Below are positions 2,879 to 40,731 of a stretch of 41,692 bases of DNA, piece after piece. Source of the DNA: Thelocarpon superellum (lineage: Eukaryota); NCBI GenBank assembly GCA_026025795.1, contig JAPEUG010000119.1:1-41692 (forward strand), given 5' to 3'. A model generated the notes under the pieces. That model was not told where the DNA came from. It did no database searches and worked only from the letters and a program-made list of their open reading frames with translations. The translations under genes and the position numbers were made by a program. Every line of letters starts with the position of its first letter. The stretch's first letter is position 1.

Positions 2879-3449
2879 GATTTCCTCCGTCACCTTATAC
2901 TCCGCCGTCACCCTGACCTACGCCCACGTCACGGCAGACACGTCATGTCACGGCATGGCACAGAACTCATGGAAATATTCATCGGATTCGTGACAGAAGT
3001 GATGGGTGAGAAGAACGGGTGCTTCCCATCGCAGACGCTCGCATGTCCAGATACAACCCAACATCAGAAGGATGTGGGGATCCACCGACGGGAGATCCAA
3101 CCCTTCACCCTCGTCGAGGCAAGACACCAGAATTGCAGAGAGTTTGACAACAGCTGCAAAAAGGTCCGTCACAGACAAGAAAAGGGAAACGACACGCGCG
3201 GGTGACAGCGAGGTCTGACAATGAGAAACGAGAAGAGAGAAGCAAGGGAAAAGGCTGAGACAGAACATTGGGGGAAACATCTGGGCGGAACATGGGCTGC
3301 GACGTCGGACCTGCCGAGTCAACGTGTCAAGTGTGAGGGGTGAATCAAGGTGATCAGGGAAACATGCCAACAACAGCAGGGGTGACAAGAGGGCAACAGC
3401 GGGGGACGTCCATCATCCCCGTGCTGCCTCATTCATCCCTCGTCCGTTC

Positions 3450-3503
3450 TTCATCTTCGCCTTCGTCTTCATCTTCGCCTTCGTCTTCATCTTGGCCTTC
3501 GTC
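3450..3503. repeat. 3 x 18 bp tandem repeat (TTCATCTTCGCCTTCGTC)
   Basis: Seen directly; reads DEGEDE on the minus strand. Confidence 0.9.
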
Positions 3504-3593
3504 TTCAACTTCCTCGCCCATGTCGACGGCCGACGCCCCCGCTTCGCCCGACTCACGTGGCACAGAGTGGGTGGTCTCTTCTCAACCTTCCAG

Positions 3594-8773: not shown

Positions 8774-8852
8774 GTTGACGGTAGCTCTCGGACCAGCCAG
8801 TCTCAAGGCGTATGGAATCTAAGGAATGTGAAGCAGAAAGGTTCCGCTGGAT

Positions 8853-12423: not shown

Positions 12424-14178
12424 ATGGCATTCGGACGATCCAGCAGTGGACCGGGGGGGTTGAGCATCAACACCGGCTCCGCTAATTCTTTGTTGTAAGT
12501 CCTCCCCGCGGCCACGTCACGGCGGGTCGGAGCCTTTGGCAGCGCCCTCGCTCTTTCCAGCATCAAGGAACGGTCTTTTAGGAGGGGAGAGGGAAATGGA
12601 GACTGACAGCTTTAGCCCCAACACGAGCAGCCAAGCACCGGCGTCGGGCGGGCTTTTTAGCACCAGCACCTCTTCACAAGCTACAACCGGGGGAGGAATC
12701 TTTGGTCAAGCCTCGCCGGGGGCGGGTCTGTTCGGATCGTCGTCGAAAGCAGCATCTTCGGCAACGCTGGCGGTGCCGGGCAGTGGTCCGCCTTCGCAAC
12801 CCGGGGGCCTCTTTGGCTCCTCTCCTGCGCCCGCGGCGGGCTTGTTTGGGGCGAGTAACCAGCAAGCACAAGCGCCCCCAGCCTCGGGGTTGTTTGGATC
12901 GAACACGCAACAACCGCAGAATGCGCAAGGGGGCGGTCTCTTTGGCTCGAATAGCGGGGCGACTTCGCTTCGGCCTCAGGTTCGCCAGCCCCGCTTCTCC
13001 TGAGCTCCTGCATCCCCGGCTGACATCCGCGCAGCCGCAGCAGAGTGGAGGGCTCTTTGGTGCAACGCAGAGTCAGGCACAACCCCAGAATCCACAGCAA
13101 GCCGGGAGCCTCTTTGGCAATCCAAGTGCCACGACAGCCTCTAGTCTATTGTGCGTGAGACCTCAATGATATGGACGGCGACAGGCCCTAATCTCACTGC
13201 CATAGTGGAAATCCAACTCCCCACGCACAACCGAACAACACTGCACCGGCAGCATCCGGCATGTTTGGGGGCACAACTACGACGAATCAGGCGAATGCAC
13301 CGTTCGGAGGCCTTTCCTTTGGACAGCCGCAAGCGACGACGCTCCAGCCGCCGAACGCAGTGCCCGGGGTGAAAATCGACCTGAGCAACCTCCGACCCAC
13401 CACACGTTTCACGGACCTCCACGAGGATGTACAAGCAGAGATTGAGAAGCTAGACGCCATGATCCTGACGCAGATGGACCGGGCCAAGCAAGTGGCCGCC
13501 TTTCTCGGACCGCACGCGGACACGCTGACCTATCTGCCCAACGATGTCACCTTTATCACGCATCGAGTGGCGACGCTCTCGTCGGCCTTGGAGAATGACG
13601 CGCAGGCCATTGCCCATGTTCGTGATCTGACCGCAACGGACGGGGCCGATGCGAAGCTGTCGTTCCGCGCCGTCGACAATCTGAAGCTGCCGCCGCAGTA
13701 CCACCACCACGGCTCGATGTTATGGAACGCGCCGCCTGCACCCAATAGCCGCAGCTCCGGAGCGGCACTTGATGCAACGACCGCATTGACTGGGTCCGAT
13801 GAGCGGTCCGGCGGTCCGAAAGACCTCATTGCTTTCTTTGCGGCGCGTGCCGATGCCATGGCGGCGTCACTGGACAATTACCAGCAGGGCGTGGCCTCGG
13901 TCGAGACGCACTTGGCGGGGGTAGAATCGCGCACGGCACAGCAGATCCAGAACCTCCTGATGACACGAGGGCAGGATGGTGGCGAGCTGAGCGCGACCGA
14001 CCAAGTCCGTGAGTTGGCCGGGGTGCTCCGCGACTTTGAGCGCGGTATCCTCCTGGTCGCGGGCACGGTGGGCGGGGCGCGAGAAGGGGTACAAGAATTA
14101 GAGCTGGCCACGCATAACAAGGACAGCGCGGGGCTCGGTGGGTCAGGTGCGGCGGGCGGTAAGGCTGGGAGGAGGTAG
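12424..14178 (+). CDS. NUP49: FG/GLFG nucleoporin Nup49/Nup58
   Basis: MAFGRSSSGPGGLSINT; introns 12495-12615, 12980-13034, 13151-13205; many GLFG repeats followed by the coiled-coil region VKIDLSNLRPTTRFTDLHEDVQAEIEKLD. Confidence 0.85.
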
Positions 14179-15688: not shown

Positions 15689-15835
15689 GTCCCCAATGCT
15701 CGCCCCGCACGCCCCGCGTTTGGTGTGATCTTCAAACGATCTCCCTGCGGAGGCCTATCTCGCTGAAGACCAATCATTGAAGACACCTCCGCCTCGTAGC
15801 TCTCTCTGCCGCTGTCCCCATCTACTTCCGTCACC

Positions 15836-17118
15836 ATGGCTCCATCGCTGGAGGAGCGGGTCCACCCCCCTCTCTCTCCTGCGCCGCTATTTCCCGCCAA
15901 GGACACCTCATGGCAGCACTATGCTCCAGGCCGAACGGCGGTGGAATCGCACGTACAATACGAGCACGACGATCTCAAACCATCTTTCCCCGTCGTGCAT
16001 TGGGCACCACTGACTGAGGTTCCCTATCACGACAGAGGCTTGCACGGACACGCGCAGTTCCGACATCTGCTCAAGGATGCAGTCGACATCTTCGATTACA
16101 ATCCCAAGATCGGCACCGAGATCCACGGCGTCCATCTCGCGCAACTCACGGAGCATCAAAAGGACGACCTGGCACGTCTGGTAGCCCACCGCGGCGTCGT
16201 CTTCTTCCGGAATCAAGATGACCTCGACATAGACGCCCAACGAGATCTGATGCGTTACTTCGGCAGCCTCCACAAGCACGCGACGACGTCGGTGCCAAAG
16301 CGGCCTGGCTTGGAGGATGTGCACGTGGTGTACACGGACGAAACGTCCAAGGATCAGCGGGCCCTCTTTACCCCTAGCTTCCTCTGGCATTCCGATGTAA
16401 GTCTCTTCTCCGCGCTTGACGGCCCGTACTGACCACGCCAGGTCACCTACGAGATCCAGCCGCCGTCGTACACGAGCCTCAAGCTCCTATCGGGCCCACC
16501 ACGTGGTGGCGGAGGGGACACGCTGTGGGCATCTCAATATGCGGCGTACGATGTCTTATCGCCCTTCATGCAGCGATACTTGGAGAGCCTGACGGCCCTG
16601 CACTCGGCAGAACTGCAGGCGGAAGGATCCCGCGCCCTCAACCGGCCGGTCCGGCGCGACCCCGTGGTGACGCAGCATCCCCTGGTCCGCACGAATCCCG
16701 TGACAGGCTGGAAGAGTCTCTTCTTCAATCCCGGCTTCGTCACCAAGATCGTCGGCGTGCCCAAGACGGAGAGTGATACCATCATCCATTTTCTCAACGA
16801 GGTCTTGACCACCACCCAAGAGCTCCATGTCCGCTTTCAATGGCAAAAGAACGACGTGGCTTTTTGGGACAATCGTGTGACGGTACTTATGATGTGGCTG
16901 GCTTTAATGTCGCTGTCCTCCCGCTAACGTGCGAACAGAATCACACGGCATCCTATGGCTTCGCCCCCCATCGCCGCCACGCCGTCCGCGTGGCTAGCCA
17001 AGGCGAGCGTCCGTATCTTGACCCCTCAGGAAAGTCACAGGAAGAGGAGCTCAACCGGCTGTACGGGATTCCGACGACGAGCAAGGATGGTTCTGGGCTT
17101 GCCAATTACAATGACTAG
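15836..17118 (+). CDS. TauD/JLP1-family alpha-ketoglutarate-dependent (sulfonate) dioxygenase
   Basis: PKIGTEIHGV, RGVVFFRNQ, WHSDVTYE (HxD), GGDTLWAS, HPLVRTNPVTGWKSLF, FWDNRVTNH…R; introns 16397-16441 and 16883-16938. Confidence 0.93.
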
Positions 17119-17725: not shown

Positions 17726-20311
17726 ATGGCGTCCGTCCACCTACAAACCTCCACCATGCCGGGCACCGAGGCCATCCTCAATGAGGACCGCCGTATCACG
17801 CGTTCGAAGATCGACCTCCCTCTTCTCCGCACTGATCCAGAGCTTGATCTACTTTCCTTCGCTCGTCAGTTGGAGCCGGATTTTGCTCATTTGAGATTCC
17901 CAATGGTCCAGGTGGAGGATGACGAGGACGAAGGCGTCTCATGGCCGTCTTGGGCTACGGATTGCGTCCGTGAGCTTGATTCGGCGTTGGCGGCCGAGAA
18001 GCTGCAAATCAAAAGGGCAGATCTTCTCTTCCTTCAGTCTGCCGTATCACTTGGGCGGTCTCCCTCTCCCATGAGTCTCTCGGGCTTGGATGAGGCGCTC
18101 GTCAAGGTTTGTCCTCCCGTTGACTGTTTGACGGCAAGGACTCAACGCTGATACCGCCAAGGCCAGGAGATCACGATTATTGAGGTCCGTGCCTCTGCAG
18201 CGAGCTCGAACGAAGGTTGCGATTATCCAGTCTTCTCAAAATGAAATCCCTCAGTCCTCTCCCGTCGCCACAGGCAATTCTTTTTCTGCGGCACACGAGT
18301 TGGAAGATACTTGTGCCTCGAGGTCCGAGAGGTCTTGGCCCTCGACTGGTCCACAGGACAGAAATGTCTTCGATTCACCGATATTGAACGAGGGTGTGCC
18401 TGAGGTCGCCGCCACCCAGGAGACGGTAGAGGTGCCTTCCGAGAGCATCTCATCTGAAACGCTTTATCCCGGGTTTGGTGATGCCCCTCCACCCGGTATA
18501 TTTGAAAATTCGACCGGGACCACCAAGGCTAGAACCAACAGAATTCCACATTTCAAGGTCCCTCGGCTGGATGGCTGGCCTCTACGTTCATTTTCAGTAC
18601 GGTCTAGACTCTCCAATGAAACGACATTCTCTTCGACTCTCGACGCCCACTGGAGCTCGATGAAGCGATTCACAAATGAAAGATGGCCGGTACGGAAGAG
18701 TCTAGACCGAGAACTAAGCTGGGTACCGTTTTCACTCGAGCTGCGGAGAATCTCTTCGGAAGAAGAGCTGGATGACGGTGGCGGCGGAATGTACCTGAAG
18801 AGCTTCCTGAAGATGACAGAGAGTGGAATAGACAGCAGTGCTTTCATTTGGAAGCCGGAGGGGCTGAAGATGCTGAGAGATTTATATGAGGAAGAGGAGG
18901 AGCTTCTCCCAGGGCTTCTTCCCCACCGTGCTCAACGGACGGTGGTCAGGAAGAGGAAGCGATTGGCACCTGGAGAGGAAGGGGGCGAGGTGAAATCAGC
19001 GCATGGAGGACCATTCTCAACAGGTGGAGGTTTACTCAGCTTCATGAAGGCGCGAGGGCAAGACGTTTCTCTCTTAACATCTCACCCACCACCGGGCCAT
19101 CATCCTCCTCGACCAGTCTCAGTCAACTTCGCACCGGAGGATTCAGCGACGAATTTGCGGAGACACCGAATGTTTACGGACCCCCTCCCCTACCCACCAA
19201 TCTATATTCCCGACTTACCGCACGCCGTCATCATCTCCACGGCCCTATCCACGCAGCACTCCCTCATCCGCCGATTAGAGGAGCTGAGCCCAAGCATCGA
19301 GTTTATCGAACGAGACTACACCTCAAACTCTCTTTCAGCCAGTCATACTCTTCCTCTCCCTTCAGCATCACTGCTCGAAGAGGCGGACCTGACCATATCC
19401 GCAAGCACAGGGATTCTACTCACGACCCTGCAGAAGTTAAAGCAGCGTTCTCTCCATGCATCCACGGGCCCCTTTTCTCATCCTCCCCCTTCCGCTCGTA
19501 CAAACGCGGCGCTCAGTTCCCCACTCAAACAGCGCATCGCCCGCGCTCAACCGCGGTACGCACGGCTCATCGTCCTCGTGTCTGAGGGACTCCGCACGGT
19601 TTCAACGACGAGCTACCCTACTATGCAACACAACGCACCGGAAGTATCGCCGGTGACGGGTGGTTTGAAAGAGGGAGATACAGATGCTTTGGTCGACTTG
19701 ATGGCTTTTGCGAGCGGGAGAAGACAAATGGGAAAGGTGGACGTGTTGTTCGTAGGTGGCGGAGAAGAGCAGCTAGCGGGCTGGATCGCAGGGATCATGA
19801 GTCCCGTCCAGCCCCTGTCGTCCTCACTGTCATCCACTGTCGCAGAGGCGCGAGGGGAGCGGGTTAAGTTGCTGCATGAAGAGACATTGGTAAGCATTCT
19901 CCGCCTCCTACGCAGAAGTAGATTTCACCGTCCATATCACCGTCCATATCACCGTCCCTATCCTCTCATCCTCCAGTCACTCCTCTTTCAAAACGCAATC
20001 GACTAATGTACATGTAGTGGGAAATATTCCTCCGCAAAGCAGGCCTGAATCCCTACGCCGCGCAGGCCATTCTCTCCACGCTCAAGAAAGGGAGTCAGAG
20101 AGCACCTTCGCTTGGACAAGAGACCAAGGACTTGGCGGACGAGAGGTTCGAAAACGCAAACGAAGGGAGAAGGAGAGGGGAAATATGGACTCTAGCCGCC
20201 TTCGTCACTCTCTCATTCGCCGAGAGAGTTTCGTGCTTCGCGGGCGGGGCGGGTGGGGTGTCTGCGTCATCCCTGAGACGACTAGAGGACGTGTTTGATG
20301 CTGCATTGTAG
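17726..20311 (+). CDS. Probable Zip2/SHOC1-like meiotic XPF-fold protein (start codon uncertain)
   Basis: Introns 18107-18161 and 19890-20017. C-terminal IEFIERDY…EEADLTISASTGILLTTLQKLKQ…RYARLIVLVSEG…GGGEEQLAGWI…LLHEETLWEIFLRKAGLNPYAAQAIL resembles an inactive XPF/ERCC4 domain plus HhH. The CDS itself is well supported; the family call is inferred. Confidence 0.6.
19926..19961. repeat. 3 x 12 bp repeat (TCACCGTCCATA) inside intron 2 of the Zip2-like gene
   Basis: Seen directly. Confidence 0.85.
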
Positions 20312-23140: not shown

Positions 23141-24187
23141 TCATGAGGCATTCCGTAACAACGGAGTCCGCTCGTGAACGCGATGCCCCTCGCCGTTTCC
23201 TTCCACCACATGACTTCCTTCGTCGTCGGTCTCGGCGTGGTCCTCACGATGGATCGCAGTCCCTGGGGCAAAGTCCCGAGGGCGGTTGGCGAACAGCTCA
23301 AAGTAGATGGCCATGACCAGTAGCCCACCCTGCAAGCATCCCGTCACCAAGTACACCCCCCACGCACTCCAACCTTCGGCACCTAGTCGTAACGCGAGGC
23401 TGGTGGCCCAGAGGAAGCTCCCTGGCGTTTGTAGACACATCATCGGGATGCTGAGGCTCTCCACCGCCCGCAGCCGCCAGGTCGTGTAGAGCTGAGGGAA
23501 GTACTGGATGCAGGCAAGTAGCGTTGCCACAACGCCATAGAAATTGGCCAGAGCCGGAACGACCGATGGGTGAGTGAACAGGAGGATCACCGAGACGACA
23601 AAGGTGACGGCCGCGTGCAGGAAACAGGCCAAGGCGACCCCGATGGCGGTCTGATAGGTATACTGGGACTTGATGCTCTTGGGCGCCGAAAGTGGCGTGT
23701 TGCGGGGGAAGAAAATGAGGAAGAGTAGGAGACTAGACGAGAGCTTAGCACGGCGCTTGGCGGGCGGGGGAAGGGATAGGCTGGGGGACGAACATGATGC
23801 TAAAGCAGGTCCACTGCGTCCCCACCTGCGCGATGCCCAACAGCGCCGAGAAGCACTGGAAGGGGCTGACGACCTTGCAGCATTGTAGGTCTGCACGACT
23901 AGCGGGTAGGAGGAGGATATTGGCAAAGGCGCTGGTGCCGCTGGTAGTGCCGAGAAGGACAAAGTACGGCGAGAGTCCCTCAGACGACCGACGGCGGATG
24001 ATTCGGTAATGCTGGGGCAAGTACGAGACGACGATCCCGACCAGGAGGAATCTGATTTCCGTCAGCGACGCCTACACCAGACCTGAAGTGCCGAGGGACG
24101 GCGGCCGGGAGGTTGGTCCTACATGGACAAGCTCAAGTTGGCGTAACTAGGGGTGGTTAAGCTGATGCAGTGATGCGAGGACGCCAT
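23141..24187 (-). CDS. PQ-loop family 7-TM membrane protein
   Basis: Introns 24122-24052 and 23793-23733; two PQ loops (SYLPQHYRI…SEGLS; QYFPQLYTT…SLSIPMM); C-terminal ERTPLL dileucine motif. Confidence 0.9.
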
Positions 24188-24633
24188 GATGCACGGCAGC
24201 GATGGGGATGTGCTGCTCAAAGAGAGACAGAAGTGTGACGGAGCATGACGTGGGGAGAGAGGAATTACGGAGGCGCCTTTGCACGGAGAATGAAGAGCGT
24301 CATAATTCCTGCCACCCGCGGCTTGACACGTTGATCTGGCGCATAATCACCGCTGGCACGCACAGGCAACATCCAGCCAGCACGCTCCGCTGCCGCTGGG
24401 CCGCCACTCCCCGGCACGTTGCTTGGTGGCGGACTGGCGGAGCAGCCGAGGGCGGCGCGTGTGGCTGTGCCGCCCACCCTAGCCTCAGGCTTCTTCCCCA
24501 CACATCACTTCTTTAGTCGTGCACCGAGAGGAGCGTCGGAGTTCCGGCCGGGATTCATCATGGGGTGGAGCGCGCTGAATCTCCTGCCGGTGAAAGGTTT
24601 GCAGTATTTCCTCTAGAAGGAGTGTCCTAGCTA

Positions 24634-27030
24634 ATGGGAGGTGTAGAATGGCTGGCGATATGGCATATGTACCGAACCCCCATTCTGATGGGACTGCTGG
24701 CCACCCTCCTTATCCTCCGAATATGGATGCATTTGACGTTCACGCGCACGCATGGCCCGGAGAACTCGGTGTTTGTAAAAGGAGTGCAATCTCCTTCGGT
24801 CCCAGTAAAACCAGCGGACAACAAGATAGAAGTCTCGTTGGCAGACTCAGAGAAAGAAAAGCCCAAGAGAAAGACGCCTCCGCGGAGAGTGGACGGCCGA
24901 AGCACTCGGGTTCACGGAGGACCGGAGTCTAAGGACGACGAAGACGCCGACTGCAAAGTCCAGATTTTGGTCTTCTTCTTCTCCCTCACGGGCTCAACGG
25001 AGAAAAGGGCCAGGTGGCTGGTCGAGCAGCTCAAGCTCGAGTCTGCCCCTGAGCCGGAAGGCTCAAAGCTCCTACCGCCGGGTTTGCTCGACTTATCCTC
25101 CGTTGATTTGGACGAGTATTTCATCTCTCCACCAAAACCATCCAATCCCCAGGAAAAGGTCAAATACGTCTATCTTATCATCCTGCCCACTTACGACCTC
25201 GACACGATTTTGAATACCTATCTCGAGCACCTACGAGAGACGCATCACGACTTTCGCATCGATACCGCCCCGCTGTCGTCCCTATTAGGCTATGCGGTCT
25301 TTGGGTTTGGAGATCGGGAGACATGGCCGACAGAGGAGGAAGGATTCTGCTCTCAGGCAAGAGAAGTGGACCGGTGGATGGCCAAATTGACGGGTCGAAA
25401 GCGCGCCTTTCCACTAGGGATGGGGGATGTGAAAACCGACGCCGCCGAGCGATTGGCAGAATGGGCCTTGGGAGTGAACGAGACGGTGACAGAGCTGATA
25501 GATTGCGGCAGTCTCGGGGAAGGGGTGAGAGGGAGTGGAGATCCTGTGGAAAGTGATGAAGAGGATGCGGATGAGGTGAACGAGGAAAGCGACGCGACTC
25601 GTGCTCCTTCGACGACAACCAAGCCATTCGCTTCCAGAGTAGATGACGTCGAGGACCTCGGCCGGACTCTGACATCCTCGTCAGAGGCCGCGGCCCCGAA
25701 CGCATCAAGCATGGGAGTCATAGCAGTGGACTTTACGACCTATGGCCAAACGAACGCACCAGCCGCCCAGCCAATCAGGGAGATGGTGCCCAAGTCGTCC
25801 CCGACCTATGCGACTTTGACAAAACAAGGCTACACCATCGTCGGGTCTCACTCGGGGGTCAAGATCTGCCGATGGACCAAGTCGGCCCTGCGCGGCCGCG
25901 GCTCATGCTACAAGTACTCATTCTACGGCATCAAGTCACATCTATGCATGGAGACGACCCCATCGCTGAGCTGCAGCAACAAATGCGTGTTCTGCTGGCG
26001 CCATGGCACCAACCCCGTGGGCACCACCTGGCGGTGGAAGGTCGACCCACCCAAGTTGATCTTCGACGGCGTCAAGGAGGGCCACTACAAGAAGATCCGC
26101 ATGATGAAGGGTGTGCCAGGGGTACGAGCGGATCGATTTGCCGAAGCCTTTCGCATCCGGCACTGTGCGCTCAGTCTCGTCGGCGAGCCCATCTTCTACC
26201 CTCACATCAACGAGTTCACCGCGATGTTGCACCGCGAGCACATCTCCAGCTTCCTGGTCTGCAACGCACAACACCCCGACCAGCTCGCCACCCTGCAGCC
26301 CGTGACCCAGCTGTACGTCAGCATCGACGCCAGCAACCGTGAGAGCCTGCGCAAGATCGACCGACCTCTCCACCGCGACTTCTGGGAGCGGTTCCAGCGC
26401 TGTCTCGACCTCCTCCGCGAAAAGCGCTTCCAACAACGCACCGTCTTCCGACTCACGCTCGTCAAGGGATTCAACATGGCGGACGAAGTCGAAGGCTACG
26501 CCACCCTCGTCGAGCGCGGCCTCCCCTGCTTCGTAGAAGTCAAGGGGGTGACGTACTGCGGCACCTCAACGTCCGCAGGGGCGGGTCTGACGATGCAAAA
26601 CGTGCCGTTTTACGACGAAGTGCGCGCCTTCGTCCTCGCGCTCAACGACGCCCTCGCGGCCCGCGGCCTGCACTATGGCCTCGCAGCCGAGCACGCCCAC
26701 AGCTGCTGCATCCTGCTCGCGTCGACGCGCTTCCGCATCGACGGACGATGGCACACGCTCATCGACTACGCGCGCTTCTTCGAGTGTTTAGAGTCCGGGC
26801 GCGGATTCACGCCCGAGGACTACGTCGGCCCGCCGACGCCCGAGTGGGCGCTGTGGGGTAACGGCGGCTTCGATCCTGCAGATACGAGAGTGTATCGGAA
26901 GGGGAAGAATAAGAAGCCATTGCTGCAGGGGGATGGTGGGGGTGCAGATGAATACGGGGAAAAGGGCACTGTGGATGAAGAGGCCGTGATAGAAGAGTCG
27001 GCAGTGCCTGTTCCCATAGATGAGACATAA
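24634..27030 (+). CDS. TYW1: tRNA wybutosine-synthesising radical-SAM enzyme Tyw1
   Basis: Intronless 798-aa ORF: N-terminal TM anchor, flavodoxin-like domain (SLTGST; YAVFGFGD), KQGYTIVGSHSGVKICRWTK, CSNKCVFCWRH (CxxxCxxC), EVKGVTYCG, EHAHSCC. Confidence 0.97.
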   Translation: MGGVEWLAIWHMYRTPILMGLLATLLILRIWMHLTFTRTHGPENSVFVKGVQSPSVPVKPADNKIEVSLADSEKEKPKRKTPPRRVDGRSTRVHGGPESKDDEDADCKVQILVFFFSLTGSTEKRARWLVEQLKLESAPEPEGSKLLPPGLLDLSSVDLDEYFISPPKPSNPQEKVKYVYLIILPTYDLDTILNTYLEHLRETHHDFRIDTAPLSSLLGYAVFGFGDRETWPTEEEGFCSQAREVDRWMAKLTGRKRAFPLGMGDVKTDAAERLAEWALGVNETVTELIDCGSLGEGVRGSGDPVESDEEDADEVNEESDATRAPSTTTKPFASRVDDVEDLGRTLTSSSEAAAPNASSMGVIAVDFTTYGQTNAPAAQPIREMVPKSSPTYATLTKQGYTIVGSHSGVKICRWTKSALRGRGSCYKYSFYGIKSHLCMETTPSLSCSNKCVFCWRHGTNPVGTTWRWKVDPPKLIFDGVKEGHYKKIRMMKGVPGVRADRFAEAFRIRHCALSLVGEPIFYPHINEFTAMLHREHISSFLVCNAQHPDQLATLQPVTQLYVSIDASNRESLRKIDRPLHRDFWERFQRCLDLLREKRFQQRTVFRLTLVKGFNMADEVEGYATLVERGLPCFVEVKGVTYCGTSTSAGAGLTMQNVPFYDEVRAFVLALNDALAARGLHYGLAAEHAHSCCILLASTRFRIDGRWHTLIDYARFFECLESGRGFTPEDYVGPPTPEWALWGNGGFDPADTRVYRKGKNKKPLLQGDGGGADEYGEKGTVDEEAVIEESAVPVPIDET

Positions 27031-27516: not shown

Positions 27517-30232
27517 TCACTTCGTCGCGTTCGCAGGCGCGTTGTTGGCGCTCGGCTCGAGCGTGTGGACGTGACCTGGTGCCGAGACGATCTCTCCGCC
27601 GTCTTCCTGCCGACACAGGGGCGTGGACGCGAGCCAAGGGTCGGCGAGCACTTCTTGCAGGGTGGCGCGCTTGGTGGGATTGATTTCGAGCATCAGAGCG
27701 ATGATGGAGCGGCTCTCGCGGGGGAGGAGGCGCAAGAGCCGCCAGGGCCCTTTGATCTGCGTGGGTGGGGTGTTGGCGACCGTCGGGGCAGCCGTGGAGC
27801 TGGCCGGGGTTGGAAGCTGGTCGGAGGATGCGTTTTTGGAGCCGTCGTCGGCAGCGTGCGACGGCGGGTCGGATTCCGACGCCTCGCGGTCGCCCTGATG
27901 GCGGTGGCGGTGTCGGTGTCGGTGAGTGCTGGTGGTATCACGGGTGGAATCGCGCGACGCAGGGTAGGAGGACTCGGCCGAGGTGGGGTCGTCCTCCGAC
28001 CGCAAGACGGCATCGGGGAGGTCGGCAGTCGATTTAGGTCGATGGTCGCCTCGTCGCCCGAATGATCCTTCCGAATACGGCGTGCCGGGCGTGGGGATCG
28101 ACGCGAAGAGTTTGTACGAGTTGTCGGTATATCGGGGCGCCTTCCACGGGAAGCGTCGCAAGGACATGCAGCAGAAGATGATGGCCAGCGACCAGATGTC
28201 CGGTGGCTGTGGATCGTATTTGTTGCTGTCGAATACTTCCGGCGCAAGGTACGGATCGCTGCCAACGATACCTGCACGCCCAGTTAGCCACCACGTACGT
28301 CGTTTGACTCGGACACGGGGAGACGAACCGTGCGCCATGACGATGTCGTTTTCAAACGGATATCGAAATACCGTTGCGCTGCCAAAGTCAATGATCTTCA
28401 TGATGCCGTGATCATTGACGACGACGTTGTCGAGCTTGAGATCGCGATGCGCCAAGCCCATGCTATGCAGGTAGGCAACACCGGTGATGATCTGCAGAAA
28501 GGAACAGCTGACCTCCTCGCGGCTCATCTTGCCCGTCATGACGGCGGCGAAGAGATCAAAGGGTGCATATTCCATCACCTCGTACCACTTGCCGTGCTCG
28601 TGCACGATGTCCAGGGTCTCGATGATGTTGCCGTGGTGCAGCGTCGATCCGATGCAGAATTCCGCCGTCACCTTCTTGGCGTAGTCGCGCTCGGACTCAT
28701 GCGGATGACGGTCGCGAAATTCCTTCACGGCAAAGGTCACGCCATCCCCACTCCGCTTCAACAGTCGGACGGACCCGCCCGCGCCCGCTCCGAGGACCTT
28801 GCCGAATTTGCCGTACTTGGACGTCAAGCCGTGGTCGTCGGCAAAGGGCACGGCCGTCTTGGGCAATTGGTGAGGCGGGGAGCGGGTACCCGACGTGCTG
28901 TTGCTGGTCCCCAAGCTGGACTTGGAGGCCGGTGAATGCTGTCGCTTGCTCTTATGTCCCAATCGGAAGAAGCGTTTGAGATCCGACATCGACCCGTGAC
29001 TGGCCCCCTCGTCCAGATGGCCCTTTCCGCCTCGAGCGTGTGGGAAGATGTGCGGATGTCGCTCGCCCGAGCCCGAGCGCGAGACGGCTGGGGCTGGCGC
29101 ACTCTGGCCCCCGTGCGCTCCATGACCCGAGTGACGACGCGAGTCTTTTCCGCTGAACTTGAATCGCGCGTCGATGCCCTCCAAGGTCTTGGGCTGCGGC
29201 GGTCGCTTGTTGCGAGCGTATGGGTCGTCCTTGTCCCCGAAAGGAGCAAAGGGCTGGCTGTAGGGTGTGCTGGTGCCGGAACCACTGCCACCGGCACCGG
29301 TGGCACTTTCTTCCAGCGACAGTTGGGAAGTGTCGCCGCCGGGCCCGATGGTGAAGAGGGGATTGTGTTTGGACTGTGACGAGTCTACACTCGAGTCGGT
29401 GACGGACGTCGGTTGAGTTGAGGCCATCTCTGCGGTGGAAGGTCGCGACGACGAAGTGCTGGGCGCTTGGTCGTTGTCGGAGCCGAGGGCTTTGCCGATG
29501 CTGGTCGAGGGCGCGTGGCCCTGCGGCGGCGAGATCTCCGGCGTCATGGTGACGGGATCGGGATGTGCTTTGCCCCCAACGGCAGACGGGGCCGGGTGGT
29601 CTGCGGAGAGGGTTTCCGCGGGGGTCAAGGGCGGAGAATGGACAGTGGAACCCAGCGGCGACGGTCGTGGAGACGCGCCGCCCAGGGCCGGGCTAGCCTG
29701 AGCGTCATTCGAGGGCACCTATCGTGAATCATCAGCGGGACCGGCCTTTTCGACAATAGGCGCACGGGAACAATGCCAACGTACCCTCGAGGCCGGTAGG
29801 GAGACTGGTTCGAAGCTGAAGTTTTTCATCCTTCCTTCCTGAAGGCGGGTGTTGGTGAGGGTGATGGACAGATTGCGGATCTCGTCCTCCACCTGGGGAT
29901 CGAGATCTGTCGTCTGCCTCGTGACTTCCGAATTCAGGCTGTCGACCGGTTGAGCATCCGGGGGCGAGATTTCCTGCTTGACGGAGCTGAAGCGGACCGT
30001 CTGCAGTGGGGGCTCATGCGGTGCGTCGGCCGGGTGGGGCTCGCTGGGCTCCGAGGGTTCAATGACCGGCGCAGCGCCGGCACCGACGGGGGCGAGAGGT
30101 GGTAAATCAGACGACTCGGGCTTGGGTCGGTGGAGGATGCCTGTGCGACAAAACTGTCAGTCAGGATGGTCGCTTTCGAATCTCGAGGACGAATGAGCAT
30201 ATACCCTTGGGCTCGTCGTGTGGGGTATTCAT
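27517..30232 (-). CDS. SAT4: Ser/Thr protein kinase Sat4/Hal4 (HalA), ~842 aa
   Basis: ATG 30232; introns 30204-30141, 29784-29719, 28328-28272 give one continuous frame. [55 protein letters not shown]…DNSYKLF match Sat4. Confidence 0.92.
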
Positions 30233-32360: not shown

Positions 32361-33732
32361 ATGTTGAACTGGGCCAAACAGCAGTATGTAATGGTGGAAG
32401 GGTCGTCGCACGCGACTGCACCTCGATCTAATGTGGTCGTGGACCTCTAGGGTCGCGAACGTCGCCGGCACTCGGGAGCCCATCTACGGCCCGTCGGCCA
32501 TCAAGTCCGTCGCCACCCAGGCGACGGAAATCCCCTACACGGAGGTCACCAAGGATGACCTGAGATGGGTGGCCATGCAATCGACCTGCGTCGAGACCCA
32601 GACCTTCTACCTGACCACTGACGCTGGCCAGCTGGCCATGGCTCAGGTCATCTACAGTAATGTGGGGTACGAGACAACCGATGGGACCATGGAGCGAGAC
32701 AACTGAATAGGTCATAGTGGAATCCGGACGACCTGTCAGTTCAACACGAAGATCTTCTCGACGGATGGCAAGACGCCCCATCTCTGGGCCTCCGATCCCC
32801 TCCAAAATTTCGGCTTCGACGATGAGAATCTGTCATTTTATGCCGACAATGTCGCCATTACCCTGTCGGAGGATGGCACTCAGTACTGCATCAAGGGCGC
32901 GACCAACGACCAAGCCATCGTGCATCTGACCTTCACGAGGACGGCTCCCGGATTTCAGGTAGGCAAGGATGGGACCACCCTCTTTGGAACCGATCTGGAG
33001 AATCCGTGGGGCTCGATGCGACATGTTTTCTGGCCGCGGAACAAGGTCGAAGGTACTATCATCACCCCCGCGGGGGAATTGAACTGCCAGGGCAAAGGGC
33101 TCTTCATTCATGCGCTCCAAGGCATGAAGCCTCACCACGCCGGTCCGTCGCGCGCCCTCCTGATGGTGCAAAGATGGAGGCATTGCTGACGCTCTCCACA
33201 GCGGCAACGTGGAACTTTGTCAATCTCCAGACTCCCACGTACTCGGCCGTGATGATGGAGTACATGACGCCGCCGTCATATGGCTCGACCCGAGTAAATG
33301 TGGGTGGCGTGGCGCGGGATGGCGAGATCATGGCCGCCGGCTCCGCCAATACTGCCTCACATACCGATGTCAAAGGTGATCCCGAGAACGACTGGCCGGA
33401 ACCCGCGGCCGTCAAATTTACCTGGACCGGTCAAAGCAAGGATGACAAGCCCGTGCACGCCGTGCTGGAAGGATCCTTGGGCACCCGCCTGGACCGAGTC
33501 GACGTGCTGGCCGAGGTGCCCGGGTTTGTCAAGACGATCGTAGGTGGAGTGGTAGGCACCAAGCCCTACATCTATCAGGTGAGTCCTCTCCGAGCGCAGT
33601 GCTCGCACCATCTCCATATTTCGTGTTGATTGGAATCAGTACTCAACACCCCTGGACTTGACGGTGAAAGTGGGAGATGAAGAAACCACGGAGAAGGGCG
33701 TGCTCTTCTCCGAGGCCGTCTTCATCTCATAG
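32361..33732 (+). CDS. SVF1: Survival factor 1 (Svf1)
   Basis: [70 protein letters not shown]…[15 protein letters not shown]; introns 32384-32450, 32667-32717, 33143-33201, 33579-33639. Confidence 0.95.
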
Positions 33733-34350
33733 GTTGGAGTGGAAACGGCGTTATGGACCACTGACAGCTTGTCTCCGTCTCGCGGTCCGCTCCTTGGTTT
33801 GAAGCGCTCCGTCTGGATGCAGGCGACGTAATAGACGGTGATGAGGGTGATGTGCGATGGATGGATAGACCATGGTGACTTGGCCCCAGAGTCATGGGAT
33901 GAGATGTACCGTCTCGCCGCTTCGACCAATTCTCTGCTTCACTCACATGACCCGCGAGCTCATCGCCTTGGTCACTTCAACGATTGAATGCTCACCCCTC
34001 GCGTACGAATACCTCGTTGAGCAGTCGCGTGTTTCGCAGCGCGTGTGGACGGGGCGTGGACCCCCGGTACGCTAAGCCGAAATTGGGACAAGGTCAGACT
34101 GTGCACCTGTCGGCACGTTGGCTTGCGTCCGCTAGCCGGTCGCGCCGGTCCTCGCGTGGACTCCGTACTCGAACGCGGCCAACATCACAAAGTCGAAGCT
34201 CGACCCTGGTACGAAGGCCCAGAGCTGAGAGCGTCGAACCCACTGTACAAGTGTAGCCTCATCAAGTGTCCCCATCTGCGAGCTTCCCCTTACGCTCCCA
34301 TTGCCAACTCATCTGCCTGCTCAACGACGTCGCTCTTACTTCCTTGCATC

Positions 34351-35134
34351 ATGGTCCTGCTGACCTTTTTCCCCAGCCAGTCGGGGAAGACTCGTGGGGT
34401 TGCGGCCACAAGCTCGGGCGGCAAGCGTCTCGATCCGAACCGCAAGAGCTTGGGGGGCAAAGGGCTGGGTCACGGTGGCAAAGGATCGCGACGCCACCGG
34501 TAAGCGTCCGGGGCCCCGCGCTTATCGTGGCTGGTCTCACACCTACCCTCAGAAAGATCCTCCGAGACAACATCCAGGGGATCAGTTCGTATTTCCCTGT
34601 CGGACATTGACCCGAGTACAATGCTGATGCAGCGCTACAGCGAAGGGCGATATTCGGTGGGTCGGATCATTCCCGTTGCTCGCCCGGACCATGACTGACT
34701 CTCTTCTGGCTCCAAAGCCGTATGGCCCGTCGTGGTGGCGTGAAACGTATCTCGTCGATGATTTACGACGACATCCGTGCAGCGATGAAGGACCGCCTCA
34801 GCGTGGTACGCCTTCCCTATCTTTCTCATGGCTAGAGGCGAAATACCGACAACTTTTCAGGTCCTCAAGGACGTGGTGTGTTTCCTAGAGCATGCGGACC
34901 GAAAGACGGTGACAGTAACCGACGTGATATTTGCTCTACGACGGGTATGTATCCTTCTGTTGGCCGCCCGAGAATCCCCGTTGGTCAACGCTGATATCTT
35001 GGATGTGACGTATCCAGCTGGGTACCCCTATCTATGGTATGATGTCCAACCATCACTTTCCACTGCCAACGTCAAGGCTCACGGGTATAGGTTTTGACAA
35101 AGGAACCTACACCGAGAAGAAGAGTCGTCGCTGA
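34351..35134 (+). CDS. Divergent histone H4 variant (H4v/H4E-like), 143 aa, 6 introns
   Basis: Exons 34351-34499, 34553-34584, 34641-34656, 34718-34805, 34861-34944, 35018-35036, 35091-35134 give …[109 protein letters not shown]. Confidence 0.9.
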
Positions 35135-35778
35135 TCCGCGCGACTTGTGCATTTCGATACCCTGTCGTACGGCGTTCGGCCGACCCTCGCCCTTACAAGG
35201 CCCGCGAGGGGAGGGAAGGGAAGGGGAGTTGGAAGGCAGGCGGGTTGGGAGAAAAGGAAGGTTGGACGGGTGGAAGTGTCCCGGTCATTGTTCCTGATTA
35301 TGTCGAAGATGGCTTGAACGGCATCATCAGGAGCGGCCGGACAGTTCCACTCCTGATTGGCTTTTGGCGAATTCGCCTACGTCAGTGCGTCAATCTTGAG
35401 ATGACCGTTCGATTTCGTCCCCAGTTGAGACTCAACTTCCATGGTGATGAGGAAAATAGGCCAGTGGTTCTGGCTCAGTTGCGCTCGCTCTCAGATAGAG
35501 CCCGCCCGTCAGGTCGATCACAGCGCCAAAGGGTCCGACAAAGTCTGGAGGAGGTGGGAAGCGAGAGAGATTGACGTGCCTTGGCTCGTTGAAATCCAGA
35601 CACAGATTCAAGTCTGGGAGGGGCCATCAGAAAAGGTAACACCTGGGCTCAAAGATCAGTACAATGCATCCCCTCACCTACGAACGAAACAGACGACGGG
35701 GAGGCTCGCGATCATTGGCTCAAATTTGCTTTATCAGCGCCAAAGACGAAGAGACGGCGGCATCTTGACGACATATGG

Positions 35779-36693
35779 ATGGTCACCTTTCCACTTGGCC
35801 GTCCGACACCAGATACAATGGGGGCGGTCCCGCCCGTCCTGCTTACCCCAATACATCATCTGCGCACCAGCGAAGATGTCATCATCCACTTCTGCACCGC
35901 CGCCGTAGCTGCCTTCAAGTCCTCGCCCCCATACCAACTGGCCACAGGTATTGGGGCGGTGCTGAGTGACCCCAAATATGATGGCAAGGTGGTGCGTACC
36001 TCCGCCCAAGCAGTGGTCAAGGTCAAGCGGTCTCTGTCCATAGATGAGGTTGCCAATCGGACCTATGCCCGTTGTCATGCCTCGGGCCCCCTCCGCGTGC
36101 CGCAGGTCTACCGCTACTTCGCGGATGACGCGGGGTTCCAGTACCTGGTCATGGAATACCTTCCTAGCCAGAGCTTAGCCGACTTGGACTGGTCGACGCT
36201 CGCGCTGAATAAGCAGCAGCGGCTCATCCGCCAGGTCACCGCCGCGCTGGCCCACCTCCGCACCATTCCGATGCCGGTATTGCCCCGGCCGCGGCCTGGC
36301 CCCGTCGGAGGCGGCAAAGCACGTGGCTATCTGTCTGACGACAAGGCCGTCAACGAACCTGTCACCGCACGCAGCCATCTGGAACGCTGGATCAATGTCC
36401 GCCTGGGCTATCGATCCATTTTCTTGCCGAAGAACCATTCCATCGGCGAGACCCGTCGGTCAGACTTCGGCAACGCGCCCCTCGTCCTGTGCCGTACGGA
36501 TCTCGCACGCCGAAACATTCTCGTCCAGCCCGACGGCCAGCTGTGCCTCCTGGGCTATCACCCGCCGGCCTTTGAGAGCTATACCTTGAACGAGCGCCGT
36601 GAACGTGGTCCTCAATACTTTGGTCGACTACTGGAGGAACTCAACCCCAGCACCAAGAAGCAGGAGCAACGGGAATGGCTATTATTGGCGTAG
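35779..36693 (+). pseudogene. APH/choline-kinase-like phosphotransferase with disabled motifs (pseudokinase or decaying gene)
   Basis: AVVKVK, LRVPQVYRYF, YLVMEYLP and PGPVGGG identify the family, but the catalytic loop reads LCRTDLARRNILV (His replaced) and the DW motif is missing (LCLL|GYHPPAFE). Confidence 0.7.
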
Positions 36694-37847
36694 TTTGTGA
36701 GCGCGCGCTTTTGCTTTCCTGGTCCAAGGTAGGCATACTCGAGCCATGTGGGATGCCGTTGCTGATCCTACCTAGCGCGCCTCCTCTGGACTGGACGTCT
36801 TTACGACAAGGTTGGAGAAGGCTACGTTCGGTGGGTGCGTGCTTATGAGGGGACAGACTCCAAGAGATGTCCGGTAACACCGACCTCAAATGTGTCTTCG
36901 CACAGCAGTTCCCAGAAATGATTCTCGCGGGTAGCAGCTTCTTCAACCTGCCTGGTGTGCCAACGAGCGATGGACTGGGAATATCTTCGATTATTTACGG
37001 TGCTTGCTGAGGTCGCGACAATGTCCGGCTGGTTCTGATCCATGGTTAAATTACTGACTGGTAACAGAGTCGGTGCGGAAGCCCACCTCTCGCTGCCCAC
37101 GAAGCCCCTCGCAACGTGAATCCTACCTGAATCCTACACCTGTGGGCTGAGTCATCACCTTACCGAGTAAATCCCGAGTAACGTCACCTCGTAATTACCG
37201 CTGTACGAAGATAGCAGTCCGACAGCGGGTCGGCTAGCTACTCCTCACCCACTTACGTGGTAAGCAAGCTTTGGAGGGCACATCCAACAGACGCCGCTGC
37301 CTACATCGATAAATCACTCACACTCTGTCTCTACCACCAAAACTCCGAATGGCCCCAGCACTCATCATGCGCAGGATTCTTGCAATATCCATGCTCGAGA
37401 GAGACACACCCTCTACTGTTGTACCCTTCCACTGCTCTCGCAGCCCGTAATCCATGCCCTAGGCTCGGGCAGGCACGTTGCATGCGCTTCGGCATTTCGG
37501 TGATCGTGGGCATAATGCTTGTCACGAAAGCTCTAAAGCGCATGTTCCCTCGCCATGGCCTAAATCTGCAGCACTGTGGTGCTCTGCAACTTCAACTTCC
37601 TGCAAGGCATGGGCTGCTTTTAGGGCGGATCCTGCGCGTTTTCGGCCGACTAGCAAAGGTCCCAGCGAATGCTCTGTTTCTTTGGCGCCCCTCGTGCTCC
37701 CTTCAACCCTGCCAGTGATAAGTGGGAAGGAAGGAATGGATTTCGTACTTATAGGAGCCCGTGGCAGCAAATCCGATCGGGTGGTAGTGATCCATTTCTG
37801 TCGGTCTCCCGGTCCTTGCTGTGGGCGTTAAGTCTACCTGAGGCAAG

Positions 37848-40731
37848 ATGAAGTTCCTCACCGCCCAATGGGGGATGTGCCTTGCCTGCTTAGGTCTCCT
37901 CGTCCACTTCACCATCGCCGATGTCACTCCCGTGGACGGCTTTGTGACCAACTCCTCGCTTACCAATTCATCCGTGGGCCAGCCACAGAGCGAAACAAGG
38001 GCCGTCTACTTGATCACTAACGTCTTACTGAACGGCGCTCAAATTCTTCCTCCCACGTACGAGAAGCTCCTTCCCGTCTATGGCGTGCTCCATTTCAATG
38101 CTACCAAGCACGATGGGCCCTTGGAGATCCAGCTCGTCAAAGAAAATGGCACCGAAGCCATTCGAGTGTCCGACTGGGGCCTTGGCAACGCAGACAAGCC
38201 CATGGCCGTCCCTCAAATCCAGCCCGAGTACCTTGTTGACTCGTTTGAGCTGTATGGGCAAACCAACCTAAGCAACAGCGACATCCTGAATGCCACGACG
38301 GGTACGGGGCTGGTTCACGACGTTTGGGCCCAACATCCCTCTTTGGCGCTCAAATCCTACAATGGTCTCGACTTTGCCCGCTCCTGCATCGATAAACTTG
38401 GCCTGGGCCTGGGACCCCCGGCCGGTGCACCATCGCTGACGCAGCTCCGACTCGCCGAGGCGAAGAAGTTCTGGCAAAATCTATGGGTACCAGAAAGAAA
38501 TGTCACCGATTATCCTATCTGGCTGGACGTGCTGAGTGGCTGGGGCCCCGAGACAAGCAAGTCACGGGCCGAGTTCCATTATCAATCTGATCTCGCTCCA
38601 TCCGCCAGCATGGTCCCCTTGCGCCCTGTTGCGCCAGCTCCTGACACCGGGCGCCCCTCCGATTCATCCGAGCTGGAGTTGTCGGAGCTCGCGGCGCCGG
38701 CGATGATGGAAACTTACCACGCCGACCAAAACTCCACCGAAACAGCCCCACAATTCTTTCGGCAGTACGAGTGGATTGTTTCCTCCCCGGTGAACCAGTC
38801 CCTTCAACGCAGAGACGATCCGTCCGCCGCCGAAGGCCCATCTGAGAAAGCTCAATATGGCTCAACACCGGATGACTATCACAAGAGCGGTAACGCGGTA
38901 AGACTTATCGACAGCAATGGACGACCGGGAAAATGGGTCCTCGTGACTACGAGATCAGACAGCGTCGTCACGGTATATAGGGGAATGTCCGTGACCAAAG
39001 GGGCCACACGTCTCTTTGCGGTCGCGTCTTTTGTCACCAGCATCGTCTTGGTCATCGACATGAATGTACCCCAAGCCAAAAGGACCGCGGAAGGTCAGAA
39101 GCTAGTTGACGCCGGGTCGGCCTTGGTTTTCCTCGGAATTGTCGTGGGCATCTTCTCAGGAGGGTTTGGTTTCCTGCTGGAAGCTGCTGGCGTGTCCATG
39201 GTCACCACAGGTTCTTTCGCCCCAAAGTTCAACATCCCCTCAGATGACAGCGATGACGGCAATACCGCCCCAGGCTGGAACAGTTATGGCCCTTCTGGAA
39301 CTTACCCGAACTACTTCAACGGCAATAGCAAGAGAAGTCTGTCTGGATCTGATCCAAAACTGCCGCGCCGGGACAACGTGTTGGAAATCCTCCGATGGTC
39401 GTTCTTTGGCGACAAGGACGTGACTGGGCAAGAGAACTTCCAGGCCAAGAACGAAACCGGTCTCTTCGTCATTGGACCCGCAATGATTTCGAGCATCCTC
39501 GGTCTTTCGGCCTTCGACGCGTTTGCCTTCTTGATTCACCACAACAAAGGATTCCCGATGACCATCGAGGACATGAGCAAAGCCTTCGTCGTCAAGAATA
39601 GTACCGGCGATGACGAGCACGCCGCGTCAATCACCTGTCCGCCGCCGCAATTCTATCACGGTCGATTTGATGGTGGGCCTCCGTCGTGCGCGAAAACGCA
39701 TTGCCGTACTGATGTTTCTTGCAGACGCACCACCATCGGCCAAGGACTTGGCGCAAGCAGCGTCGGGGCCATGTTCTCGGCCTACCTTTTCCATCAATCG
39801 AGCACTCATCACCATCCCCGTCATCAATCAGACCGCCGACCAGGTCCTTGGCCGGCTGATGCCCCAGGGCGACTGCGTGCTGGTGGGCGACGTGACCGTG
39901 GGCGACGCATATCCCGCGTACAATATGACGATCAAAGGGGCGCCGGTCGTGATCGCCTGTGGCATCGTCTCGGCCATCCTCAACAGCACGGCCGTGTCGT
40001 CGGCCGAGGCAAACGGCACAATGCCGACTGGCTCCATTTCCCTCGGCAATCAGAGCTCCGATGGATCTTCTGGCACCGCCTACATTGCACCGCCGCCACC
40101 GGCCCCGTTCCAGACCGATGTGCTGAACTCGACCAACGCCATATGCCTGGGTCCCGATGCGGAGCACCTAGTCTGTCTTCCCAACGGCACGTACACCCAG
40201 CAAAAGGGCAGCCTTGGGTTTCTGGACACGCAAAAAGTCACCACGCTACGCCTCTCGCCAGGGAGCTATGTGGCCATCGAAGAGAGCGTCACGCCATATG
40301 CACGCGCAGGTCAGCCCAGGGACCCACCGAACCTCCATGTTGTTACACGGTATACGACCAATCAGTCGGCCTCCGATCACAACTTCACCATCGACATGAA
40401 ACGCATGGCTTACTACGACCCCAATACCGTTGACTTCATCGTGCCCTCCGCCGACCCGGATGTCGTGTGTCTTTTCACCGACACCAAATATGCCGGCGAT
40501 GTGCAATGTTTTGGACCCGGCGGTGGCGACTTACCACCTGCGTTGCGTGGGAACGTCAAGTCGCTCATCTGCCATGGACAGGCGGCGGTGGAGCTCTTTG
40601 CGACCAACTATAGCAATGCCTTTGCGTACCAATTCGACACCTACGTTGACGACCTCACCAAGTTGCCGCAGAATTTCGCCAGCTTGCTGCATGCGATGTG
40701 GGTCCGGATTGAGCCGGGGCCCAGTGAGTAG
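37848..40731 (+). CDS. Secreted ~943-aa protein of unknown function; internal hydrophobic helices and possible C-terminal beta/gamma-crystallin-like domain
   Basis: Signal peptide MKFLTAQWGMCLACLGLLVHFTIA. A phase-1 intron 39673-39724 (GTGGGC…ACTGAT…TTGCAG) joins the 861-aa ORF to the 373-aa ORF. Many N-glycosylation sequons. Confidence 0.8.

Follow-up and report, generated by a model that had tools for sequence, protein, structure and literature searches.

The window examined here is the whole 41,692-nt stretch of DNA from Thelocarpon superellum, a lichen-related fungus placed in the order Thelocarpales, leotiomyceta incertae sedis, within the Pezizomycotina. Between positions 34351 and 35134 on the forward strand, a predicted join of seven exons yields a coding sequence of 432 nt for an H4-like protein of 143 amino acids, with no internal stop before the TGA at 35132-35134. 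A scan for open reading frames over the region 33900-35700 found no single frame spanning this protein, in agreement with the preliminary description of the locus, and none of the 26 long open frames of the window that were scanned against Pfam gave a histone match.

The gene belongs, very probably, to a family that has already been described. H4E is a variant of histone H4 present throughout the Pezizomycotina, and the intron pattern of its genes is wholly unlike that of canonical H4 genes (Flipphi et al. 2024, PMC10878826). The published gene model begins with a phase-2 intron and an exon of 29-32 nt, and continues with a phase-1 intron and an exon of 16 nt; these are followed by a phase-2 intron, an 88-nt exon and phase-0 introns, with a 63-nt exon between phase-0 introns and also a 21-nt exon (PMC10878826). 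Lecanoromycetes and early-diverging classes reportedly have one more intron, of phase 1, situated 19 nt beyond the last phase-0 intron (PMC10878826). The exons and introns of the Thelocarpon gene are as follows.

34351-34499, forward strand: exon 1, 149 nt; opens with ATG and encodes an extension of about 30 residues, the H4 N-tail with a 2-residue insertion, and the basic patch RRHR
34500-34552, forward strand: intron 1, 53 nt, GT..AG, phase 2; phase and position equal those of i1 of the published H4E model
34553-34584, forward strand: exon 2, 32 nt (29-32 nt in the published H4E model)
34585-34640, forward strand: intron 2, 56 nt, GT..AG, phase 1; CTGAT 13 nt before the 3' end
34641-34656, forward strand: exon 3, a 16-nt microexon encoding (T)KGDI(R) (16 nt in the published H4E model)
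34657-34717, forward strand: intron 3, 61 nt, GT..AG, phase 2; CTGAC 19 nt before the 3' end
34718-34805, forward strand: exon 4, 88 nt (88 nt in the published H4E model)
34806-34860, forward strand: intron 4, 55 nt, GT..AG, phase 0
34861-34944, forward strand: exon 5, 84 nt; gap-free alignment to canonical H4
34945-35017, forward strand: intron 5, 73 nt, GT..AG, phase 0
35018-35036, forward strand: exon 6, a 19-nt microexon encoding LGTPIY(G)
35037-35090, forward strand: intron 6, 54 nt, GT..AG, phase 1
35091-35134, forward strand: exon 7, 44 nt; starts within (G), encodes the basic C-terminal extension and ends in TGA

All six introns have GT..AG borders, measure 53-73 nt and interrupt the frame in phases 2, 1, 2, 0, 0 and 1, and three of them contain a match to the branch-point pattern CTRAY 13-23 nt before the 3' end. 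In introns 1, 2 and 4, read-through runs into a stop; the stretches read in introns 3, 5 and 6 contain none. Since the lengths of introns 1 to 5 are not divisible by three, retention of any of them would shift the frame; intron 6 is the only one that is both in frame and free of stops. Its retention (35037-35090, forward strand) would add 18 residues between IY and GFD and keep the frame. The third codon positions of the coding sequence have a GC content (GC3) of 0.674, against a GC content of 0.543 in the introns. Splicing and expression of the gene are predictions made from the DNA.

In codons 4-9 of exon 1 (34360-34376, forward strand), an AG is preceded by a CTGAC resembling a branch point and by a pyrimidine run, a layout like that of a 3' splice site. 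A gene model with an upstream 5' exon may be an alternative, and we considered an additional 5' intron with its 3' end at 34376; it was set aside and the ATG at 34351 was retained, because the proteins of Schaereria dolodes (P0162) and Pycnora praestabilis (P0198) also start with MVL, and because the open frame holds no in-frame ATG further upstream. The 143-residue product is identical, letter for letter, to a protein deposited at NCBI as 'MAG: Histone H4 [Thelocarpon superellum]' (P0001), which the translation of exon 1 alone also retrieves at 100% identity. The gene had been presented in the preliminary description as hidden, and in this respect that description has to be corrected: the same model was already on record, under a name, 'Histone H4', that conceals its identity as an H4E/H4v variant.

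Its surroundings in the window were as follows.

2-766, forward strand: XAP5 open frame (Pfam)
3354-5477 and 5777-8818, reverse strand: large open frames with no Pfam match at E 1e-5
13192-14178, forward strand: Nup49_C open frame (Pfam)
15800-16432, forward strand: TauD open frame (Pfam)
18132-20006, forward strand: DUF7102 open frame (Pfam)
23141-24061, reverse strand: PQ-loop open frame (Pfam)
24631-27030, forward strand: TYW1-like open frame with Flavodoxin, Radical SAM and Wyosine_form domains, upstream of svf1
27517-29718, reverse strand: protein kinase open frame, upstream of svf1
32392-33629, forward strand: svf1 orthologue with Svf1 N-terminal and Svf1_C lipocalin-like domains (Pfam), directly upstream of the H4E gene
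32392-33189, forward strand: Svf1 N-terminal domain, E 7.6e-52 for the main piece
32826-33629, forward strand: Svf1_C domain, E 8.4e-51
35593-36693, forward strand: APH-family open frame, the downstream neighbour; weak phosphotransferase-family match, E 2.3e-08
37842-40433, forward strand: open frame of 863 aa, downstream, with no Pfam match

The svf1 orthologue is split over at least two frames and therefore probably has introns. About 75 nt past the stop codon of the H4E gene lies a purine-rich G/A tract with GGGA/GGAAGG runs (about 35208-35275, forward strand), likely to be part of a 3' UTR or terminator region.

The spliced product has the fold of histone H4. In a phmmer search against the PDB, residues 32-131 aligned to canonical H4 chains with an E value of 7.8e-35; the N-tail has one insertion, of two residues, and every exon junction is free of gaps. 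This similarity, together with gap-free junctions, excludes a chance origin of the H4 product, and the seven exons with 16- and 19-nt microexons, six introns and H4 fold of the preliminary description were borne out by it and by the intact 432-nt frame. An AlphaFold2 model built on a 24-row alignment places helices at residues 62-70, 73-107 and 114-124, with pLDDT values of 93-96 over residues 81-120, and renders the N-tail (residues 1-55) and the C-tail as low-confidence coil (pLDDT 52-58). All Pfam matches of the protein lie below their gathering scores, CENP-T_C at 23.1 against 28.1 and Histone at 16.7 against 26.4. Beyond the fold, the N-terminal extension of some 30 residues and the basic C-terminal extension that had been described were both found, plus the insertion in the N-tail. 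At the C-terminus the canonical GG that follows YGF is replaced by a basic tail of 12 residues, that is, G101D and then 11 further residues. The retained YGF near the C-terminus presumably fits ASF1 binding as in the yeast Asf1-H3-H4 structure.

Numbering the residues by the canonical H4 unit taken from P0146, we found K5L, K12H, K16R, K77D, K91R and G101D as changes, and K8, R17-H18-R19-K20, K31, K44, K59 and K79 as kept; the substitutions at K12, K16, K77 and K91 and the retention of K20, K31, K44 and K59 are as previously listed. A basic patch, R16-R17-H18-R19-K20, is present in canonical numbering, with the proviso that the K16R call hinges on where the 2-residue insertion is placed, since a lysine sits three residues before R16. 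We compared these positions over 24 H4E-like proteins, the Thelocarpon protein included, selected for showing PIYGF, a D following YGF, and TVTVxD. At position 16, 15 of them have K, eight R and one Y; K occurs at position 77 in four; and position 91 holds K in nine, R in five, N in six, H in two, Q in one and a gap in one. Lysine is found at position 44 in all 24 rows and at position 20 in 22. As positions 77 and 91 vary throughout the family, the loss of K77 and K91 is not special to the Thelocarpon gene, and, judged by sequence comparison, K12H, K16R, K77D and K91R all fall within the variation already known in the H4E/H4v family. All 16 invariant columns of the alignment are present in the Thelocarpon protein. 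Both microexons encode residues of the family consensus, KGDIR in exon 3 and LGTPIYG in exon 6; the H4E-like rows have the KGD of exon 3 as their consensus, in place of the KPA of canonical H4. A C-tail of the pattern D-x-x-T-Y followed by lysines recurs in rows from Leotiomycetes and Orbiliomycetes, which makes the short C-tail an old feature of the family and no accident.

The structure of the gene also agrees with the published H4E model. The first four intron phases (2, 1, 2, 0) and the exons of 32, 16 and 88 nt coincide, and the 3' end, where a 19-nt exon separates a phase-0 from a phase-1 intron, is that of the Lecanoromycete and early-class form. From the text and figure legend of the model, the 84-nt exon 5 would correspond to the 63- and 21-nt exons joined; the phase-0 intron at the 63|21 site would then be missing from the Thelocarpon gene, which we read as an intron loss. 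On this reading, six of the seven positions of the typical Symbiotaphrina H4E model are present in the Thelocarpon gene. The partial Schaereria dolodes model ends at TVTVTD, which is the 63|21 boundary, the very site at which the family model has an intron and Thelocarpon has none. In the deposited models from Pycnora praestabilis and Vezdaea acicularis (P0208), similarity to H4 ends right after FALKR, which is the site of intron 5; both models seem to miss the 19-nt microexon and the tail exon, apparently running through the intron after FALKR, and they show that gene predictors still overlook H4E microexons.

Gene order agrees in part. In Aspergilli the H4E gene, hheA, is flanked on one side by the svf1 orthologue and on the other by the dynein gene nudA, and this svf1-hheA-dynein order holds in Eurotiomycetes and Dothideomycetes (PMC10878826). 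In Thelocarpon half of the arrangement is kept, with svf1 directly upstream and the APH-family frame in the place of dynein downstream; no dynein heavy chain was found as the downstream neighbour among the open frames scanned against Pfam.

Searches of protein and DNA collections returned mostly canonical H4. A search of cluster representatives gave 6093 matches at E <= 0.001, and most of the best 150 of these were canonical H4 with mispredicted extensions. A full-length search with at least 120 matches returned the protein itself and canonical H4, with no H4E rows among the matches listed; the latter were mostly models of 176-250 aa, apparently tandem or extended, of which the query covers about 60%. 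When the translation of exon 1 was compared with longer proteins in a word-based search, the deposited Thelocarpon protein itself was the only hit among 63 candidates, so that the N-extension has no relative visible to such a search. A metagenome scan yielded 80 loci at 48-67% identity, which appear to be intronless canonical H4 genes caught through the DNIQGITK pattern, and no close DNA relative was found among them. The 20 H4E-like rows that we looked up are nearly all from Pezizomycotina: from lichen lineages Schaereria, Pycnora and Vezdaea, and, further, Lineolata, Plenodomus, Delitschia, Trichodelitschia, Neohortaea, Hypomontagnella, Rhynchosporium, a Helotiales species, Erysiphe, Dactylellina, Orbilia and Drechslerella. 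These named relatives cover Lecanoromycetes-type lichens, Leotiomycetes, Dothideomycetes, Sordariomycetes and Orbiliomycetes.

We assigned the protein to a class by profile scoring and by a tree. With a profile built from the 21 other H4E-like cores, the Thelocarpon core scored 161.1 bits, and with one built from 47 distinct canonical cores it scored 137.0 bits; this is a difference of 24.1 bits towards H4E, to be read knowing that the H4E-like rows were selected after sight of the sequence signatures and the tree, and that the same rows train the profile. As controls, 20 canonical cores, each left out in turn, scored -47.6 to -58.3 bits, on the canonical side, and the 21 H4E-like cores, treated alike, scored from -14.8 (Orbiliomycetes) to +38.8 bits. 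In a quick IQ-TREE analysis of 69 rows and 102 columns, the Thelocarpon protein fell in a clade of 22 rows, 20 of them with H4E signatures, with an SH-aLRT of 90, and in an inner clade of 16 rows with an SH-aLRT of 91; no branch of the tree reached 95. Its nearest row was the Schaereria protein, at 71% identity. A tree with the Thelocarpon protein outside the other 21 H4E-like rows had a log-likelihood lower by 18.2 and was not rejected by the AU test (p 0.228). Tree support for placement with H4E is moderate, and the AU result means that the tree alone is not decisive; profile scoring separates H4E-like from canonical proteins better than the tree does. Weak phylogenetic signal is also stated by the authors of the H4E study for their own trees (PMC10878826).

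Taken with the gene structure, the 24 bits of the profile uphold the assignment, made beforehand, to the kind of H4 variant represented by Neurospora hH4v and Aspergillus H4E. We conclude that the locus is very probably the Thelocarpon superellum orthologue of H4E (hheA) of A. nidulans and of H4v, or hH4v (NCU04338), of N. crassa, these two being orthologues of each other (PMC10878826). The reading that it is instead an intron-rich but canonical, replication-coupled H4 gene has on its side the deposited name, merely 'Histone H4', and the 59-63% identity to canonical cores; it is barely credible, as the H4E profile gives the core a 24-bit advantage where canonical rows go 48-58 bits the other way, the two extensions and the residues K5L, K12H, K16R and G101D are non-canonical, the intron pattern is of the H4E type, and the scanned flanking frames contain no H3 gene, the neighbours being svf1 and the APH-family frame. 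Pfam scores under the gathering thresholds and the many substitutions at modifiable lysines might suggest a decaying, non-functional H4 duplicate, a pseudogene stitched together by a gene predictor. Against this, the frame is intact over seven exons, the six introns are canonical GT..AG introns of fungal size, the microexons have the exact family sizes of 16 and 19 nt and encode family-consensus residues, all the invariant family columns are kept, the fold core is modelled confidently by AlphaFold2, and GC3 exceeds the GC content of the introns; a pseudogene is highly improbable.

What the altered lysines might mean is a separate matter. Should the patch with R16 and H12 be immune to K16 acetylation, the protein would be a lineage-specific, constitutively 'unacetylated-like' H4E that favours compaction or silencing regardless of any acetyltransferase, in line with the 'unacetylated-like' nucleosome suggested in the preliminary description. 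K16R and K12H are real, R16 is common to all four lichen-lineage rows (Thelocarpon, Schaereria, Pycnora and Vezdaea), R17-H18-R19-K20 is retained and the family is tied to silencing in Neurospora. On the other hand, K8 is retained, and the 2-residue insertion contains an extra lysine, three residues ahead of R16; the 15 K, eight R and one Y at position 16 among the 24 rows indicate that R16 is dispensable for the function of the family; the Neurospora protein has an equivalent lysine, which is acetylated (10.64898/2026.08.11.744009); and changes of K16 in many H4Es are already in print (PMC10878826). We consider such a protein unlikely. A more elaborate version would hold that the lichen-associated lineages, that is, Thelocarpon, Schaereria, Pycnora and Vezdaea, have fixed R16 in H4E, with Thelocarpon also having lost K5 and K12, and that they thereby possess a hard-wired 'silent' H4 subtype for ATRX-type deposition, whose basic patch could not be switched by K16 acetylation, unlike that of Neurospora H4v, and which would be marked by the intron loss at the 63|21 site and the 12-residue tail. 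This we regard as speculative and quite unlikely.

The orthologues with which we identify the Thelocarpon protein have been characterized in two species. In A. nidulans, H4E is nuclear and interacts with H3, and nitrogen starvation at 37 °C induces it; it cannot replace canonical H4.1, its deletion has no phenotype, and K16 is changed to R or to a non-polar residue in many H4Es, that of A. nidulans included (PMC10878826). For N. crassa, a 2026 preprint by Carlier et al. (10.64898/2026.08.11.744009) finds that SAD-6/ATRX-dependent silencing requires H4v, so that the function of this variant, which had been called largely unknown, no longer deserves that description. H4v occurs there in MNase-resistant nucleosomes and shows no enrichment on chromatin unless SAD-6 is present. 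It also takes part in a minor ASF1-H3-H4v complex and carries acetylation on the residues equivalent to K8 and K16 (10.64898/2026.08.11.744009).

The Thelocarpon protein resembles A. nidulans H4E (hheA, AN12228) in its H4 fold, its longer and divergent N- and C-tails, the replacement of K16 and the preserved basic patch, and the genes share the first four intron phases, the exons of 29-32, 16 and 88 nt and the svf1 neighbour. They differ in that Aspergillus has seven introns, one of them specific to Eurotiomycetes, and Thelocarpon six; the phase-1 intron after the 19-nt exon is present in Thelocarpon and absent from Eurotiomycetes; the other neighbour of hheA is dynein (nudA), which is not so in Thelocarpon; and, by the published description, only the Aspergillus protein carries a 5-residue insertion in the fold. 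With N. crassa H4v it shares an N-terminal extension (25 residues in Neurospora, about 30 in Thelocarpon) and a C-terminal part that departs from canonical H4, being of 35 residues in Neurospora and a predicted-disordered tail of 12 in Thelocarpon. At position 16, Neurospora H4v has an acetylated lysine equivalent whereas the Thelocarpon protein, with its 2-residue insertion, has R. Dependence on SAD-6 and binding to ASF1 have been demonstrated in Neurospora only, and details of regulation may differ in Thelocarpon given R16 and the 12-residue tail. Canonical fungal H4 has in common with it the histone fold, the basic patch and K8, K20, K31, K44, K59 and K79, but is about 102 residues long, lacks an N-extension, has a C-terminal GG and carries lysine at positions 5, 12, 16, 77 and 91, and its genes have introns at other positions. 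Trypanosome H4V, human H4G and rice H4.V are likewise replacement-type H4 paralogues with specialised roles, of unrelated origins.

By orthology with H4E and H4v, it seems probable on balance that the Thelocarpon protein acts as a replication-independent replacement for H4, passed together with H3 by ASF1 to an ATRX-like remodeler. It would pair with H3, as in other fungi, and a minor pool of ASF1-H3-H4v would be held by the chaperone, as in Neurospora. An ATRX-like remodeler (SAD-6 in Neurospora) would then deposit the variant into nucleosomes independently of replication, at sites that might include repeats, telomeres, rDNA and tRNA loci, foreign DNA and some genes, and the deposited histone would support heterochromatin formation and silencing. 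Canonical H4 would not be replaced by it.

The Thelocarpon gene is a genuine but ordinary member of its family: the family, its microexon gene structure, the tails and the altered lysines are already in print, and the exact protein is deposited. Neither Thelocarpon nor lichens are mentioned in the main text of PMC10878826, whose supplements hold the full list of deduced H4E sequences. The window adds an H4E from the Thelocarpales with a Lecanoromycete-type 3' intron, an svf1 neighbour, one phase-0 intron fewer and R16, so that the family is now placed in an order of uncertain position. As the Neurospora work of 2026 links H4v with ATRX-like genome defence (10.64898/2026.08.11.744009), the natural K16R forms are useful as ready-made variants with which to test whether acetylation at that residue matters.
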